Sequence record: PP410321
Direction: 5' to 3' (one strand)
Origin: Escherichia phage vB_EcoM_CUA3
DNA: 64,000 nucleotides
In this document: in pieces, positions 21,033 to 36,672 of the stretch
Layout of the letters: the number at the start of each line of letters is the position of its first letter
Numbering within the stretch: position 1 is the first letter of the stretch
The notes under the pieces: generated by a model
Seen by the model: only the letters and a program-made list of their open reading frames with translations
The model's database searches: none
What the model was told of the DNA's origin: nothing
Made by a program: the position numbers and the translations under genes

Positions 21033-21605
21033 TCAACTCGTTATTTCTATCCAGTGCTTCCTGCACAATGACACGTAAGAATCGTTGCCACCTATAGAAA
21101 CTTGGGCTCCGTCCTTAATTGCGACACCATCTTGGACCCTAGCAGTCATAGTAGCTTTACGGCCGCAATGGCACACACCTTTGTACTCAACGAGTTTATC
21201 TGCCGTAGCGAGTAATTCAGCAGAACCAGGAAACAGTTTACCCTGAAAATCAGTTCTTAGCCCATAGCACATAACTGGAACATTATAATTGTCTACTATC
21301 TTTGCCAGTTGTTTTATCTGTGCAGGTTCTAAGAACTGTGCTTCATCCACAAATACACAGTGGATATCTTTTTGGGATTCAGCCCAACGATAGAACTCGT
21401 ATAGGTCCATATCCGGAGTCACTGCATTAGCCTCTTGACTAATCCCTATACGAGACGAAATGGTATGGCTTGATTCTCTATTGTCTATCGCAGGCTTTAA
21501 AAGGAGCACGCCCATACCACGTTCTTTGTAGTTATGGGCCGCTGTTAGCAATGAAGCGGTCTTACCTGAGTTCATTGCCGCATAATGAAAATAAAGTTGA
21601 GCCAT
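21033..21605 (-). CDS. tk: thymidine kinase
   Basis: P-loop AAMNSGKTASLL, VFVDEAQF and CxCGxKA motifs; 190 aa, highly similar to T4 Tk. Confidence 0.92.
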   Translation of the reverse strand: MAQLYFHYAAMNSGKTASLLTAAHNYKERGMGVLLLKPAIDNRESSHTISSRIGISQEANAVTPDMDLYEFYRWAESQKDIHCVFVDEAQFLEPAQIKQLAKIVDNYNVPVMCYGLRTDFQGKLFPGSAELLATADKLVEYKGVCHCGRKATMTARVQDGVAIKDGAQVSIGGNDSYVSLCRKHWIEITS

Positions 21606-21614
21606 ATTACCTTC

Positions 21615-21800
21615 TTAAAGACTATTTACATAAGCAATTAATTCGTTTTCTTTCTCATCAAATCGATTAGCAAATTCTTCCAGATGGTCGGCATCTATCG
21701 GGCCATATTCATCGTAAAAAGCGTTTGCTTCGGCATGTTCATCCAAAAGCTCGTGGATAAGCTCAAACAATTTGTCTTTCTGTTCTTTACTCAAACTCAT
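21615..21800 (-). CDS. hypothetical protein (tk.1 position)
   Basis: 61-aa acidic ORF. Confidence 0.35.
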   Translation of the reverse strand: MSLSKEQKDKLFELIHELLDEHAEANAFYDEYGPIDADHLEEFANRFDEKENELIAYVNSL

Positions 21801-22003
21801 TTAGGTTCACCATATCGCACAAATTTAGGATGTTCGCACCCACCAGAATAAAGGCCTTCGCCTTTATGGTTAATGCACCCTTTATTGGAACAGTACCACC
21901 AGTAATCATATTCGCAATTCATTTCATCATTGCATAAAGCTGCGATTACCGGCCATTCACATTTTTCACATTTAGCCGTTTTAAGAATTCTAGCTTGGCT
22001 CAT
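21797..22003 (-). CDS. Cys-rich small protein or C-terminal zinc-ribbon domain of the upstream macro-domain protein
   Basis: CEKCEW...CNDEMNCEYDYWWYCSNKGC...GGCEHP; relation to upstream ORF hidden by N run 22009-22256. Confidence 0.3.
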   Translation of the reverse strand: MSQARILKTAKCEKCEWPVIAALCNDEMNCEYDYWWYCSNKGCINHKGEGLYSGGCEHPKFVRYGEPK

Positions 22004-22256
22004 AACCANNNNNNNNNNNNNNNNNNNNNNNNNNNNNNNNNNNNNNNNNNNNNNNNNNNNNNNNNNNNNNNNNNNNNNNNNNNNNNNNNNNNNNNNNNNN
22101 NNNNNNNNNNNNNNNNNNNNNNNNNNNNNNNNNNNNNNNNNNNNNNNNNNNNNNNNNNNNNNNNNNNNNNNNNNNNNNNNNNNNNNNNNNNNNNNNNNNN
22201 NNNNNNNNNNNNNNNNNNNNNNNNNNNNNNNNNNNNNNNNNNNNNNNNNNNNNNNN

Positions 22257-22651
22257 AATTTAGAAACCTTGTCCCAATCACCGCCAGCAATACCACAACC
22301 TATGCGCGGAATATAAATTCTTGGTTTAAACAAAAGGGTTTCTGCTTGTAGATTTAATTCTATCATACAGTTTACTAAAGCACCGTAATCAAGATTAGGG
22401 CCTGGTTCGTATTGGGTGTATAAATTATAGCANNNNNNNNNNNNNNNNNNNNNNNNNNNNNNNNNNNNNNNNNNNNNNNNNNNNNNNNNNNNNNNNNNNN
22501 NNNNNNNNNNNNNNNNNNNNNNNNNNNNNNNNNNNGCTAATTGACCCGCTACACCTGAACCCATAGTGTGAAAACAATTACACCCATGTGCAATAATATT
22601 ACCTTGGAGAAACAGGGCGACGATATCGCCCTTAATATAATTAATAATCAT
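22257..22651 (-). CDS. macro-domain (ADP-ribose binding/hydrolase-like) protein, C-terminal part masked
   Basis: N-terminal GDIV...GNIIAHGCNC...GSGVAGQL and downstream IYIPRIGCGIAGGD match the two macro-domain signature blocks; ATG 22649-22651. Confidence 0.55.
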
Positions 22652-24043: not shown

Positions 24044-24072
24044 ATAGTACCACGCCTACAGGAGATGTAAAC
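24044..24072 (-). promoter_or_regulatory. T4-type early promoter for regB
   Basis: GTTTAC (24067-24072), 17 nt, TACTAT (24044-24049); 9-bp inverted repeat pairs the SD with the spacer. Confidence 0.6.
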
Positions 24073-24571: not shown

Positions 24572-24860
24572 ATTTTTTCCAGTCAGAAATCATACGAATC
24601 TCTTGGTCATAAGTCAAGAGACTACGAGTAATAATACCCTTACAAGGCCCTGAGATGAACTCGAGAGTGAAGTAAGGAACCAATTTCATTAATCGGATGC
24701 TTGGGGCATGGCATCTAAAACGAGAGCCCTTAAAGGGCCCTGTCATGAATACATATTCCAATGGATAGAAATAAGCATATTCGAAATTTGTAGTAAGGTC
24801 CTCTCTTCGAACCTTACGTGAGAAATAACAGAACTCAAAAAGCTCTTCATCAGTCATCAT
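24564..24860 (-). CDS. hypothetical protein
   Basis: 98-aa ORF. Confidence 0.35.
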   Translation of the reverse strand: MMTDEELFEFCYFSRKVRREDLTTNFEYAYFYPLEYVFMTGPFKGSRFRCHAPSIRLMKLVPYFTLEFISGPCKGIITRSLLTYDQEIRMISDWKKYV

Positions 24861-25384
24861 TGCATTCCTATCACAAAGAACAGCGGCAGAGGTTTAGAAC
24901 CCTGGCACATAAATTTATTAATCATTACCTGGTAAGCTTCATAAAACTTATCCATCGCCGGAAGGCGCATTGGCTCTTCGATAATAATCAATAATCGAGT
25001 AACAGATAGTCCACGATACTTATGGAAATTGTCTTCATCNAANANTGNNCGTACAGTATCATACACAACAAACCCAGGACCTTCTACTTGAAGGTGTGGT
25101 TGGGCCTTAGAAACCCTTTTTATTATATTACAGATTTCTCGTGAGCGATGTGAAGAACTTGACATAACAATTACATCATTACCCTTGGAAACCCAATCAG
25201 CTGCGAACTGGGCAAGGGCGCTTGTTTTACCTGTTTGCCTTCCCCCGTCAAGTCGAAGAGTACCAAACTCTTGCATTCTTGAAGCGGGTTCGTACCAGGT
25301 GTATTGGTCTGAATCTAAGCGTTCAATGGCGCGTTCAGCGAAGGCGTGCATTAAGGTTAGATAAATGGGAGTTAAAAATTTCAT
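24857..25384 (-). CDS. small P-loop NTPase-like protein
   Basis: Walker A-like GGRQTGKTS and hydrophobic-acidic LLIIIEE; 175 aa. Confidence 0.4.
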   Translation of the reverse strand: MKFLTPIYLTLMHAFAERAIERLDSDQYTWYEPASRMQEFGTLRLDGGRQTGKTSALAQFAADWVSKGNDVIVMSSSSHRSREICNIIKRVSKAQPHLQVEGPGFVVYDTVXXXXDEDNFHKYRGLSVTRLLIIIEEPMRLPAMDKFYEAYQVMINKFMCQGSKPLPLFFVIGMQ

Positions 25385-25475: not shown

Positions 25476-25844
25476 TTACAGGTTGGNNNNNNNNNNNNNN
25501 NNNNNNNNNNNNNNNNNNNNNNNNNNNNNNNNNNNNNNNNNNNNNNNNNNNNNNNNNNNNNNNNNNNNNNNNNNNNNNNNNNNNNNNNNNNNNNNNNNNN
25601 NNNNNNNNNNNNNNNNNNNNNNNNNNNNNNNNNNNNNNNNNNNNNNNNNNNNNNNNNNNNNNNNNNNNNNNNNNNNNNNNNNNNNNNNNNNNNNNNNNNN
25701 NNNNNNNNNNNNNNNNNNNNNNNNNNNNNNNNNNNNNNNNNNNNNNNNNNNNNNNNNNNNNNNNNNNNNNNNNNNNNNNNNNNNNNNNNNNNNNNNNNNN
25801 NNNNNNNNNNNNGATTCTGTAATAAATTGTTGATAAGTTTTCAT
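25476..25844 (-). CDS. internal (capsid-injected) protein with capsid-targeting leader, body masked
   Basis: N-terminus MKTYQQFITE matches the T4 internal-protein capsid targeting sequence (MKTYQEFIAE). Confidence 0.55.
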   Translation of the reverse strand: MKTYQQFITEXXXXXXXXXXXXXXXXXXXXXXXXXXXXXXXXXXXXXXXXXXXXXXXXXXXXXXXXXXXXXXXXXXXXXXXXXXXXXXXXXXXXXXXXXXXXXXXXXXXXXXXXXXXXXXNL

Positions 25845-26305: not shown

Positions 26306-26758
26306 TTAATCTCCTGTAGTTGATAGGTTTATAGTATCATGCCTACAGGAGATGTAAACNNNNNNNNNNNNNNNNNNNNNNNNNNNNNNNNNNNNNNNNN
26401 NNNNNNNNNNNNNNNNNNNNNNNNNNNNNNNNNNNNNNNNNNNNNNNNNNNNNNNNNNNNNNNNNNNNNNNNNNNNNNNNNNNNNNNNNNNNNNNNNNNN
26501 NNNNNNNNNNNNNNNNNNNNNNNNNNNNNNNNNNNNNNNNNNNNNNNNNNNNNNNNNNNNNNNNNNNNNNNNNNNNNNNNNNNNNNNNNNNNNNNNNNNN
26601 NNNNNNNNNNNNNNNNNNNNNNNNNNNNNNNNNNNNNNNNNNNNNNNNNNNNNNNNNNNNNNNNNNNNNNNNNNNNNNNNNNNNNNNNNNNNNNNNNNNN
26701 NNNNNNNNNNNNNNNNNNNNNNNNNNNNNNNNNNNNNAAATTCATTGTAAGTTTTCAT
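26306..26758 (-). CDS. internal protein with capsid-targeting leader (ipII/ipIII-type), body masked
   Basis: N-terminus MKTYNEF; located between denV and e as the T4 ipII/ipIII genes. Confidence 0.55.
26331..26359 (-). promoter_or_regulatory. T4-type early promoter for denV
   Basis: GTTTAC (26354-26359), 17 nt, TACTAT (26331-26336); perfect 9-bp inverted repeat ctcctgtag/ctacaggag. Confidence 0.6.
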
Positions 26759-28000: not shown

Positions 28001-28450
28001 TTAGAATAACGAACTTAAAACCTTATACATCGATGGACCCATGACATATTCCCATTGCGAACGTTTAATCAAGGCAAAAGCATCGAATTCAGGAATAGTA
28101 CGACCATCAGGGAACGTATGGTAAGCTGTACATTTGCAATCCTTGAACTGCTCGTGTTCCACAGGCACAGTGTATAAGAACAGATGTAGATTCTTATTGC
28201 TTGAGTATTTGAACTCACCTAGGTCTTTCAGGAACGCAGGATCGTATGCAGTGAATCCAATCTCTTCTTCAGTTTCACGCATAGCGGCTTGAATAGGCTC
28301 TTCACCCGGTTCGACATGACCTTTAGGGATGTCCCATTTATGACGCATATTCTCTGGATTACGAGAGCCTGTTACACGACCCATAACCAATTCTTTATCG
28401 GCAGTCATGAACAAAATACCAGCAGATAATTCTTTAACTTTCTTACTCAT
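28001..28450 (-). CDS. nudE: Nudix hydrolase NudE
   Basis: Nudix box [22 protein letters not shown]; start at ATG 28448-28450 (MSKKVKEL). Confidence 0.85.
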
Positions 28451-36439: not shown

Positions 36440-36515
36440 TGGTCGAGACAGTAGGGATCGAACCTACGACCCAGGACTTAGAAGGTCCTTGCTCTTCCTT
36501 CTGAGCTATGCCTCG
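36440..36515 (-). tRNA. tRNA-Arg (anticodon UCU)
   Basis: manual cloverleaf: acceptor cgaggca/tgtctcg, D-arm gctc...gagc, anticodon loop cuUCUaa, T-arm gtagg-ttcgatc-cctac, encoded CCA. Confidence 0.8.
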
Positions 36516-36519
36516 TATT

Positions 36520-36594
36520 TGGCGGACATGCATGGATTCGAACCATGGACCAATTGATTAACAGTCAACTGCTCTACCACTGAGCTACACATCC
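36520..36594 (-). tRNA. tRNA-Asn (anticodon GUU)
   Basis: manual cloverleaf: acceptor ggatgtg/catgtcc with G-U pairs, D-arm gctc-agtggta-gagc, anticodon loop cuGUUaa, T-arm catgg-ttcgaat-ccatg, encoded CCA. Confidence 0.75.
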
Positions 36595-36598
36595 AAAT

Positions 36599-36672
36599 TG
36601 GTGGCCCTGGGTGGAATCGAACCACCATCCAGCGATTATGAGTCGCTCGCTTGACCGTCCAGCTACAGGGCC
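36599..36672 (-). tRNA. tRNA with CAU anticodon (Met or lysidine-type Ile)
   Basis: manual cloverleaf: acceptor ggccctg/cagggcc, anticodon stem agcga/tcgct, loop cuCAUaa, T-arm ggtgg-ttcgatt-ccacc, encoded CCA. Confidence 0.75.

Follow-up and report, generated by a model that had tools for sequence, protein, structure and literature searches.

A Dhakavirus ortholog of T4 tk.4 (adfM) encodes a stand-alone macrodomain with a predicted SCO6735-type active site

The window (the whole 64,000-nucleotide stretch of Escherichia phage vB_EcoM_CUA3 DNA analysed here, record PP410321) carries, on its minus strand, the Dhakavirus ortholog of the T4 gene tk.4, also called adfM (Table 1). The best overall explanation of this gene, and one that we regard as probable, is that it encodes a TARG1-like (ALC1-like) macrodomain that counters DarTG2 by hydrolysing thymidine-ADP-ribose; its most likely function would be to remove the ADP-ribose that DarT2 adds to the thymidines of phage DNA. 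Tk.4/AdfM and its anti-DarTG2 role are already known from T4; the sequence-only reading of this locus, which had recognised a macrodomain and suggested that a phage copy could reverse ADP-ribosylation-based host defence, is supported, but what it proposed is not new.

Table 1. Features of the tk.4 locus in the window.
Feature	Position	Strand	Basis or remark
tk.4/adfM, stand-alone macrodomain, inferred 155 aa	22184..22651	-	start read, 3' end by alignment
tk.4 visible codons 1-38 and 74-131	22536-22651; 22257-22432	-	
tk.4 masked codons 39-73; 132-155 plus stop	22433-22535; inside 22009-22256	-	
HGCN, codons His22-Gly23-Cys24-Asn25	22577..22588	-	read directly
Gln80 (CAA) in NLYTQ	22412..22414	-	profile-to-PDB alignments and MAFFT column
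Second ADP-ribose-binding loop, P115-R-I-G-C-G-I-A-G-G-D-W126	22274..22309	-	
tk.3 (DUF7202, 70 aa), inferred	22000..22212	-	masked except for the last 9 bases
Separate 68-aa Cys-rich gene (JS98 orf102 type)	21797..22003	-	own ATG at 22003, overlapping the tk.3 stop
T4-early-type promoter-like site (TTTACA, 16 nt, TACTAT, with TG), upstream of regB	24044..24071	-	consensus scan

The macrodomain had been read as part of a single 284-aa minus-strand open reading frame at 21797-22651. Direct minus-strand translation showed that both macrodomain motif blocks are where that reading had placed them: MIINYIKGDIVALFLQGNIIAHGCNCFHTMGSGVAGQL is the translation from the ATG at 22651 (22536-22651), and CYNLYTQYEPGPN...IYIPRIGCGIAGGDWDKVSK, at 22257-22432, lies in the same frame, 3' of a 103-nt run of N. 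The 284-aa frame itself, however, is an artefact of N-masking that joins three separate genes. As listed, it spans two N runs translated as X, and the same stretch of dhaeg and JS98 contains tk.4, tk.3 and a separate 68-aa Cys-rich gene. The second N run is 248 nt long, a length identical to that of its equivalent in dhaeg and JS98, where it takes in the tk.4 stop, the complete tk.3, which is read in another frame, and the first part of the third gene. In dhaeg, JS98 and fDHCT2 the stretch that corresponds to the first masked run is longer by 12 nt (4 codons), a difference that leaves the frame unchanged. The start codon of tk.4 overlaps the stop codon of vs (ATGA), and the stop codon of dhaeg and JS98 tk.4 aligns to 22186-22184, giving a predicted protein of 155 aa, as in JS10 and T4 (155-159 aa in relatives), of which about 40% is masked. 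The preserved reading frame and length suggest that the gene is intact. Among the database records compared, none reproduces the window. An exact 32-mer with the QAETLL variant of the window led to one IMG/VR contig (L006), which is 90-96% identical around the gene; the record closest to the visible middle block, fDHCT2 (98.9%), nevertheless has a 159-aa Tk.4 and lacks tk.3, and Esco_phi_B-01 agrees in overall length at the locus only owing to a shorter tk.2.

The window belongs to a Dhakavirus (T-even) genome. At the DNA level it is most similar to Dhakaviruses, with 93-96% identity (dhaeg and JS98 being the closest, at about 95-96%), and the order regB, vs.1, vs, tk.4, tk.3, (Zn gene), tk.2, tk is as in T4. 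The description of the macrodomain gene as lying next to tk needs correction, since tk is at 21033-21605 and the Zn gene, tk.2 and the predicted tk.3 intervene. We place tk.3 in the window because the masked run has the length found in the tk.3-bearing dhaeg and JS98; the phages that lack tk.3 (CLB_P2 and fDHCT2) are ~200 nt shorter at the locus. In relatives, tk.3 and tk.4 share 29 nt, read in different frames, and the tk.3 ortholog of dhaeg matches Pfam DUF7202 (E 2.5e-37). The visible bases TGGTTATGA (22008-22000, TGG TTA TGA) fit the end of tk.3, in which WL is followed by a stop codon that overlaps the start codon (ATG) of the Cys-rich gene. A programmed frameshift from tk.4 into tk.3 was considered and set aside, the overlap in relatives containing no slippery sequence and that in T4 being only 4 nt. 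The zinc-ribbon-like Cys-rich segment noted behind the macrodomain is indeed present, but not in the same protein: it is a complete 68-aa gene, annotated as its own CDS in dhaeg, JS98 and JS10, and it matches Pfam PF23895 ‘Phage zinc binding domain’ over its full length (E 2.1e-28) and PHROG 2306 (E 2.7e-31). A macrodomain-zinc-ribbon fusion was accordingly discarded, tk.4 and the Cys-rich gene being separate in dhaeg and JS98, with tk.3 between them in the other frame. Scans of the region revealed the promoter-like site upstream of regB and no minus-strand terminator-like site between that site and tk. Promoter-like sites were no commoner in the region than shuffling predicts, the counts from the promoter and terminator scan equalling the shuffled expectation, so that the operon is only weakly indicated, and it is with low confidence that we suggest that the site may start a regB-vs.1-vs-tk.4...tk transcript. 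A homolog of vs.4/Acb2, a signal sponge, lies 1.5 kb upstream of tk.4.

Assignment of the product to the macrodomains was confirmed by comparison with profiles and by structure prediction. The unmasked orthologs scored above the Pfam Macro (PF01661) gathering threshold of 22 bits (dhaeg 33.7, JS10 32.8 and T4 27.7 bits). The window's own X-masked 155-aa protein reached 18.1 bits (E 0.0026), falling short of that cut-off because 40% of its residues are masked, and it matched PHROG 335 with an E value of 2.3e-42; taken alone, the visible fragments are short, and the N-terminal 38 aa had no Pfam match and the middle 58 aa scored 13.7 bits (E 0.063). Overall, the macrodomain signal far exceeds what chance would give. 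Over the 96 visible residues, identity is 99% with fDHCT2, 97% with dhaeg and 69% with T4 Tk.4, and the position of the gene between vs and tk.3/tk.2/tk is kept, as in T4. The AlphaFold (AF2) model of a homolog (P0005) that is 96% identical to the visible residues of the window had a pLDDT of 94.3 and a pTM of 0.88, and its top PDB folds in Foldseek were TARG1, BT1257, Poa1p, DarG and SCO6735, all of them macrodomains. The model, together with the loops MGSGVAG and PRIGCGIAGG readable in the window, has the three-layer alpha/beta/alpha fold with two Gly-rich ADP-ribose-binding loops. A profile built from 108 sequences matched BT1257 (6e-22), SCO6735 (2e-19), TARG1 (3e-18), Poa1p (3e-15) and DarG (3e-11). 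By tblastn, relatives of the tk.4 family were found in 2,782 of 50,697 phage records, in most of which the gene is labelled ‘hypothetical’ or ‘phosphatase’.

The sequence-only reading had stated that loss of the catalytic-site residues would count against it. No such loss was seen; Asn25, Gln80 and both Gly-rich loops are unmasked and intact. In the MAFFT alignment, Asn25 shares a column with SCO6735 Asn27 and PhiKZ AdfM Asn23, and Gln80 falls at the position of the catalytic lysines of TARG1 (Lys84) and DarG (Lys80) and of the essential Gln85 of SCO6735. Asn25 and Gln80 do not vary among 108 homologs, which reach down to 35% identity, and neither do His22, Gly23 and Ala122, the last of which occupies the TARG1 Asp125 position. 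The Gln/Lys column rests on HMMER alignments to SCO6735 and TARG1, on the MAFFT column and on a published structural alignment (PMC9411070); an hhalign comparison of the Tk.4 profile with PhiKZ AdfM placed this column one residue off, in a low-confidence stretch, and was set aside. With Gln in place of the TARG1/DarG lysine, the Asn of HxCN, no equivalent of TARG1 Asp125 and a stand-alone domain, the active site is of the SCO6735/BT1257 type and not of the DarG/TARG1 lysine type. In SCO6735, N27S almost abolished activity and Q85A was inactive (PMC9411070), and N23A reduced the activity of PhiKZ AdfM (PMC13309987).

In T4, tk.4 was the sole significant hit in a transposon screen on a DarTG2 host, and a clean deletion of tk.4 sensitises the phage to DarTG2; this evidence, which is genetic, comes from a November 2025 preprint in which tk.4 received the name adfM, for anti-DarT factor Macrodomain (bioRxiv 10.1101/2025.11.20.689424). 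T2 and T4 without adfN, and T4 without both adfA and adfN, are still resistant to DarTG2, implying a further factor (PMC11825919). Thymidine-ADP-ribose DNA is cleaved by SCO6735, which also rescues cells poisoned by DarT (PMC9411070); thymine- and uracil-linked ADP-ribose is cleaved by TARG1, DarG and SCO6735 (PMC13036486, PMC12879935); and PhiKZ AdfM, a phage macrodomain, takes off DarT2 marks in vitro (PMC13309987). Given that SCO6735 hydrolyses thymidine-ADP-ribose DNA in a Gln- and Asn-dependent manner, the SCO6735-type signature of Tk.4 points to removal of DarT2 marks as its likely function. According to the mechanism that we propose, tk.4 would be expressed within the early/middle regB-vs-tk gene string, with its translation coupled to that of vs. 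Host DarT2, the toxin of DarTG2, would ADP-ribosylate thymidine N3 in single-stranded phage DNA, and Tk.4 would bind the ADP-ribose and hydrolyse the thymine-ribose N-glycosidic bond, restoring thymidine and releasing free ADP-ribose, after which phage replication and packaging could continue. Since the site is of the SCO6735/BT1257 type and not of the lysine type, lysine-independent catalysis would be expected, in which Gln and Asn would hold the distal ribose and a water molecule in place. The DarTG2 role was shown for T4 Tk.4; the copy in the window would probably share that role, and hydrolysis of thymidine-ADP-ribose and the expression timing are likewise predictions. Counted against this explanation were the masking of about 40% of the copy, the weak similarity to DarG, whose catalytic Lys is missing, the middle block of the closest relatives, which is 4 codons longer than the masked one of the window, the lack of conservation in Tk.4 of the SCO6735 DNA-binding helpers Lys34 and Lys89, and the resemblance of the N-terminal half to Poa1p, which is as strong as that to any DNA hydrolase.

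T4 Tk.4/AdfM has the same genome position as the window gene, the same length of 155 aa, the HGCN, NLYTQ and PRIG-G-G-W motifs and membership of PHROG 335, but overall it is about 55-57% identical to the Dhakavirus orthologs, and its loop PRIGAGIGKGNW is PRIGCGIAGGDW in the window gene. The best sequence and profile matches of Tk.4 are SCO6735 (Streptomyces coelicolor, PDB 5E3B) and BT1257 (Bacteroides, PDB 2FG1/2AFC), which are likewise stand-alone domains of about 155 aa with HxCN, Gln at the DarG/TARG1 lysine position and GCG(I/L)AGGxW; SCO6735 is an orphan antidote to DarT and a thymidine-ADP-ribose DNA hydrolase (PMC9411070). Both, however, are cellular, non-phage proteins that are 26-29% identical to Tk.4, and Val25 of SCO6735 is Gly23 in the window gene, in which the longer mobile loop of SCO6735 is not conserved. 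Human TARG1/OARD1 (PDB 4J5R/4J5S) is the top structural match (Foldseek E 1.2e-9, TM 0.72-0.82), has the MGxG(I/V)A and PRIGCG loops in common with Tk.4 and also cleaves thymidine-ADP-ribose (PMC13036486, PMC12879935), whereas its catalytic dyad Lys84/Asp125 is Gln80/Ala122 in Tk.4.

The DarG macrodomain of DarTG2 (PDB 5M3I, 5M31 and 7OMU) is of the same fold class (Foldseek E 6e-8, TM 0.73), with the same presumed substrate, thymidine-ADP-ribose in single-stranded DNA, and the same logic of neutralising DarT2. Its catalytic Lys80 (FPTK), in contrast, is Gln80 in Tk.4, and at 155-159 aa, compared with a 338-position model, Tk.4 is without the C-terminal DarT-binding domain of DarG. Against the NCBIfam DarG model NF048014 it scored 28.3 bits, below the 250-bit cut-off, with only model positions 1-142 of 338 covered, and against the PADLOC DarG model it scored 28.5 bits. 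No darT toxin or ADP-ribosyltransferase gene was found among the neighbours of tk.4 (vs, tk.3, the Zn-binding gene, tk.2 and tk). PhiKZ gp104, also named ‘AdfM’ (Cell Rep 2026, PMC13309987), is like Tk.4 a single phage macrodomain countering DarTG2, with the first-loop Asn conserved, and it too falls in the broad PHROG 335. It differs in scoring 137.8 bits with NCBIfam DarG (28-30 bits for Tk.4), in matching Mtb DarG (E 9e-25) and in retaining the FPTK lysine. On these comparisons, T-even AdfM and the DarG-like PhiKZ ‘AdfM’ appear to be distinct macrodomain lineages with a shared name and role.

Other readings of the gene give the macrodomain a different task. The protein might be a housekeeping ADP-ribose-1''-phosphate phosphatase or O-acetyl-ADP-ribose deacetylase that clears NAD-derived by-products and does not repair DNA, an explanation that we consider distinctly unlikely. 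RefSeq labels tk.4 of T4, JS98 and JS10 ‘phosphatase; contains A1pp phosphatase motif’, and a JGI label reads ‘O-acetyl-ADP-ribose deacetylase’, but these labels derive from domain names. Over its N-terminal 80 residues, Tk.4 aligns with Poa1p, the Appr-1''-p phosphatase of yeast (E 5e-10), and its His22 and Thr29 stand at the positions of the mutated Poa1p residues His23 and Ser30; the C-terminal half matches poorly. The Tk.4 profile is nearer to BT1257, SCO6735 and TARG1 than to Poa1p. To our knowledge, T4 RNA repair by PNK and RNA ligase yields no Appr-1''-p. The only phenotype on record for the ortholog is DarTG2 sensitivity (bioRxiv 10.1101/2025.11.20.689424). Stoichiometric inhibition of DarT2, in which the toxin would be neutralised mainly by binding of a substrate or product mimic and not by erasure of its mark, is unlikely as well. 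DarT is inhibited in vitro even by catalytically dead SCO6735 (Q85A), DarG (K80A) and TARG1 (K84A), and most strongly by SCO6735 (PMC9411070), but PhiKZ AdfM works enzymatically (PMC13309987). The middle segment of Tk.4 varies strongly among close phages (JS98 type versus JS10/T4 types), as a toxin-contact surface in an arms race might, yet Tk.4 is without the domain by which DarG binds DarT, and the invariance of the active-site residues across very distant homologs favours catalysis.

We think it very unlikely that Tk.4 erases ADP-ribose from protein or RNA, whether to tune the phage's own Alt/ModA/ModB marks or to reverse host ADP-ribosyltransferase toxins. Alt and Mod modify arginine, and we know of no cleavage of arginine-ADP-ribose by TARG1-like macrodomains. 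T-even phages do encode three ADP-ribosyltransferases (discussed in PMC9503650), and SCO6735 and TARG1 also remove protein-linked and RNA uracil-linked ADP-ribose (PMC9411070, PMC13036486), but CmdTAC, an mRNA ADP-ribosyltransferase system, defends robustly against wild-type T4, which bears tk.4 (PMC11618068), and tk.4 came up only in the DarTG2 screen (bioRxiv 10.1101/2025.11.20.689424). The sequence-only reading had offered, as its second alternative, the processing of an ADP-ribose-derived signal, so that the protein would bind or degrade immune signals such as the gcADPR of Thoeris. Macrodomains generally bind ADP-ribose derivatives, and another sponge, the Acb2 homolog, is encoded nearby; Tk.4, however, is unrelated in sequence to Tad1, Tad2 and the other sponges known, its hydrolase residues are conserved, and the literature searched contained no link between tk.4 and Thoeris. 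This alternative found no support, and we regard it as extremely improbable.

Erasure of DarT2 marks by a macrodomain with a Gln/Asn site is thus our preferred reading. DarTG stops phages by ADP-ribosylating DNA, and phage enzymes that erase the marks decide host range; the presence of tk.4/adfM in a genome predicts DarTG2 resistance, which is useful in choosing therapeutic T-even phages. What the present analysis adds is mechanistic: the T-even enzyme has the Gln/Asn site of SCO6735, without the DarG lysine, so that SCO6735 is the model to follow in mutagenesis and inhibitor design. It also indicates that one name, AdfM, covers two distinct lineages. We suggest tentatively, giving the idea a little less than even weight, that T-even AdfM is no captured DarG but an independent recruit from the Gln-type (SCO6735/BT1257) branch of TARG1-like macrodomains, that it erases by a lysine-independent, water-mediated route, perhaps with wider substrates, and that anti-DarT2 macrodomains were acquired at least twice. 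If so, phages would have gained such macrodomains at least once from a DarG-like source, as in PhiKZ, and once from an SCO6735-like one, as in T-even phages. The hypervariable middle segment, which in the window is masked and 4 codons shorter than in its nearest relatives, could then be an arms-race surface contacting DarT2, and SCO6735-like action on protein Glu/Asp-ADP-ribose or RNA uracil-ADP-ribose might widen the counter-defence of T-even phages beyond DarTG2.

Translation of the minus strand from position 22651 gives MIINYIKGDIVALFLQGNIIAHGCNCFHTMGSGVAGQL and then enters a run of 103 Ns (22433-22535), beyond which the same frame reads CYNLYTQYEPGPNLDYGALVNCMIELNLQAETLLFKPRIYIPRIGCGIAGGDWDKVSK up to a second run of 248 Ns (22009-22256) and continues past it as VMSQARILKTAKCEKCEW...GEPK to a stop codon. 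Both macrodomain motif blocks quoted in the sequence-only reading are real, since they are read in frame in this visible translation, but the 284-aa ORF to which they were assigned spans three genes and is only apparent, because N runs are read as X and hide stop codons. The window carries 149 N runs (13,011 masked bases, 20%), and any ORF listed across one of them is a possible false fusion of the same kind.

Megablast assigned the window to the genus Dhakavirus (JS98-like T-even phages), with best matches to dhaeg (96.3%), JS98 (94.6%), and CLB_P2 (94.6%). In dhaeg, JS98, and JS10, the equivalent of 21797-22651 is annotated as tk.4 (155 to 159 aa), tk.3 (70 aa, overlapping tk.4 in another frame), and an ORF of 68 to 70 aa, followed by tk.2 and tk, and the ORF listing of dhaeg bears out this three-gene layout. 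In a three-way DNA alignment, the 248-nt mask was identical in length to the corresponding stretch of dhaeg and JS98; CLB_P2 and fDHCT2, neither of which has tk.3, are ~200 nt shorter here. The 9 bases directly after this mask (TGGTTATGA) match the end of tk.3 overlapping the ATG of the next gene. The 103-nt mask falls 12 nt below the dhaeg, JS98, and fDHCT2 length, which keeps the frame; the protein is then 155 aa long, as are its JS10 and T4 counterparts. The Cys-rich gene is by itself a complete member of its family (Pfam PF23895, “Phage zinc binding domain,” E = 2.1e-28; PHROG 2306); a fusion of macrodomain and zinc ribbon was rejected. Two kinds of variation were seen here. tk.3, kept in dhaeg, JS98, and JS10 and missing in CLB_P2 and fDHCT2, is a presence/absence polymorphism adjoining adfM. 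The middle of Tk.4 (approximately residues 39 to 73) differs clearly among otherwise near-identical phages, being of a 159-aa type in JS98 and dhaeg and of 155-aa types in JS10 and T4; the window gene combines JS98-like flanks around the 103-nt mask with the shorter of these lengths, suggesting that the segment has undergone mosaic exchange or is evolving rapidly.

The tk.4 product is a macrodomain, as had been proposed. Against a Pfam Macro cutoff of 22 bits, the unmasked orthologs scored 33.7 (dhaeg), 32.8 (JS10), and 27.7 (T4); the masked window protein scored 18.1 bits (E = 0.0026) and matched PHROG 335 at E = 2.3e-42. A database search returned 353 homologs. P0005 is 96% identical to the 96 visible window residues, and a structure model of it was built with a 108-sequence alignment (pLDDT 94.3, pTM 0.88). 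Foldseek comparison of this model with the PDB placed TARG1 (E = 1.2e-9, TM 0.72 to 0.82), BT1257, Poa1p, DarG, and SCO6735 above viral nsp3 and MacroD-type macrodomains.

In sequence, Tk.4 is nearer to BT1257 and SCO6735, both of them stand-alone proteins, than to DarG, the macrodomain antitoxin of DarTG2. E values were 2e-10 (BT1257), 5e-10 (Poa1p), 1e-7 (SCO6735), 3e-5 (DarG), and 3e-3 (TARG1) with the single sequence and 6e-22 (BT1257), 2e-19 (SCO6735), 3e-18 (TARG1), 3e-15 (Poa1p), and 3e-11 (DarG) with the 108-sequence profile, and the DarG models of NCBIfam and PADLOC gave Tk.4 only ~28 bits (NCBIfam cutoff, 250). Columns were compared in HMMER alignments and in a MAFFT alignment with BT1257, SCO6735, TARG1, two DarG macrodomains, and the PhiKZ protein gp104. 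These put the Gln of NLYTQ in one column with SCO6735 Gln85, TARG1 Lys84, DarG Lys80, and a PhiKZ lysine; Asn25 (of HGCN) pairs with SCO6735 Asn27 and PhiKZ Asn23, and Ala122 occupies the position of TARG1 Asp125. None of the 108 homologs, at identities down to 35%, departs from His22, Gly23, Asn25, or the NLYTQ Gln. SCO6735, which lacks the catalytic residues of TARG1 and DarG, strips ADP-ribose off thymidine in single-stranded DNA and rescues cells from DarT; its Q85A variant is fully and its N27S variant almost fully inactive, and the mechanism proposed is water mediated, with the distal ribose positioned by Gln85 (PMC9411070). TARG1, DarG, and SCO6735 alike cleave thymine- and uracil-linked ADP-ribose (PMC13036486, PMC12879935).

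T4 has the same gene order as the window, and its Tk.4, also of 155 aa, is 69% identical to the window protein across visible residues. T4 lacking adfA and adfN is still DarTG2 resistant (PMC11825919), which predicts a further factor. A November 2025 preprint describes HIDEN-SEQ of a T4 transposon library on a DarTG2-expressing host, with tk.4 as the sole significant hit; a clean tk.4 deletion was DarTG2 sensitive, and the authors named the gene adfM and noted that AdfM resembles the DarG macrodomain of Mycobacterium tuberculosis (10.1101/2025.11.20.689424). The idea that the phage protein reverses ADP-ribosylation-based defense, together with the DarTG test suggested for it, has thus already been borne out for T4. 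The window gene is the ortholog of a characterized counterdefense gene, so its novelty is low; the main idea was correct, its interpretation being supported and the underlying observation partly confirmed.

Since the active-site columns match SCO6735, and in view of the published activities, we predict that the window protein would act on DarT2-modified phage DNA by hydrolyzing the bond between thymine N3 and ribose, using an SCO6735-type active site. Released ADP-ribose could then serve as a substrate for NudE, the Nudix hydrolase of the phage. T4 NudE is said, in work by Xu et al. of 2002, to be active on ADP-ribose, and the window encodes a homolog with a clear Nudix box.

Binding of the DarT toxin without catalysis is conceivable, because catalytically dead SCO6735, DarG, and TARG1 all still inhibit DarT (PMC9411070), but the invariant active site points to catalysis. 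The protein may, as a side activity, also reverse ADP-ribosylation of protein or RNA, although CmdTAC, a system that ADP-ribosylates mRNA, gives good protection against wild-type T4 (PMC11618068). A phosphatase or deacetylase role, a reading drawn from transferred domain names and from the N-terminal similarity to Poa1p, is unlikely, and processing of signaling nucleotides, the alternative offered by the sequence-only reading, found no support.

The start codon of tk.4 and the stop codon of vs overlap within ATGA, and regB through tk are minus-strand genes packed head to tail. A consensus scan placed a T4-early-type promoter-like site upstream of regB; between it and tk, no minus-strand terminator-like sites were found, but the scan is weak evidence, because site counts were no higher than in shuffled sequence. 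The vs.4 (Vs.4/Acb2) homolog is identified as an anti-CBASS cyclic-nucleotide sponge, because its dhaeg ortholog matches Pfam PF24729 (“Acb2/Tad1 hairpin domain,” E = 3.5e-16), which places two counterdefense genes within one early gene string. Several public names in this region mislead: vs.1 is called “endoribonuclease” in dhaeg, vs “valyl-tRNA synthetase” in CLB_P2, and, in RefSeq, tk.3 “Tk.2” (T4, JS10) and tk.4 “phosphatase.” Elsewhere in the window, the 175-aa ORF, whose dhaeg ortholog had no Pfam match, may be a small uncharacterized P-loop protein. The starts of the two ORFs flanking denV resemble the sequence that targets T4 internal proteins to the capsid. In the window, ~1.2 kb separates denV from the lysozyme gene e, whereas the two are adjacent in dhaeg. 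The JS98 annotation likens the DksA/TraR-type protein to P. aeruginosa PA4870.

Positions of the genes and other features discussed
Feature	Position	Strand	Remarks
DksA/TraR-type C4 zinc-finger protein, 85 aa	19212-19469	-	Pfam PF01258, E = 2e-9 on dhaeg ortholog
Cys-rich gene	21797-22003	-	inferred coordinates
tk.3 (DUF7202)	22000-22212	-	inferred; presence judged by length
tk.4	22184-22651	-	inferred coordinates
Gln80 (NLYTQ) codon	22414-22412	-	visible sequence
vs.4 homolog, 92 aa	24078-24356	-	middle masked; 1.5 kb upstream of tk.4/adfM
175-aa ORF	24857-25384	-	Walker-A-like GGRQTGKTS, Walker-B-like LLIIIEEP; at JS98 vs.8 position
Two largely masked ORFs flanking denV	25476-25844, 26306-26758	-	starts MKTYQQFITE, MKTYNEF
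NudE (e.1)-like homolog	28001-28450	-	
tRNA genes Arg-TCT, Asn-GTT, Met-CAT	36440-36672	-	match dhaeg annotated tRNA block

Relatives of Tk.4 were found by tblastn in 2,782 of 50,697 phage records. Among these are T4-like phages and numerous further large phages of Escherichia, Klebsiella, Salmonella, Pseudomonas, Vibrio, Acinetobacter, and Aeromonas, and most of the relatives carry the label “hypothetical protein” or “phosphatase.” The name AdfM is shared with PhiKZ gp104, shown in a 2026 article in Cell Reports to erase DarT2 marks in vitro, an activity reduced by N23A (PMC13309987). The NCBIfam DarG model scores gp104 at 137.8 bits, compared with 30.3 for T4 Tk.4 and 28.3 for dhaeg Tk.4, and gp104 also retains the FPTK lysine and matches M. 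tuberculosis DarG with E = 9e-25, features that identify it as a genuine DarG-type macrodomain. The two proteins have their role and broad PHROG in common, but because gp104 is DarG-like in score and lysine and Tk.4 is not, they appear to belong to different branches. This difference, stated in the available text of neither report (10.1101/2025.11.20.689424, PMC13309987), is the sole, modestly new observation made here: the T-even and PhiKZ proteins named AdfM would represent different macrodomain branches.
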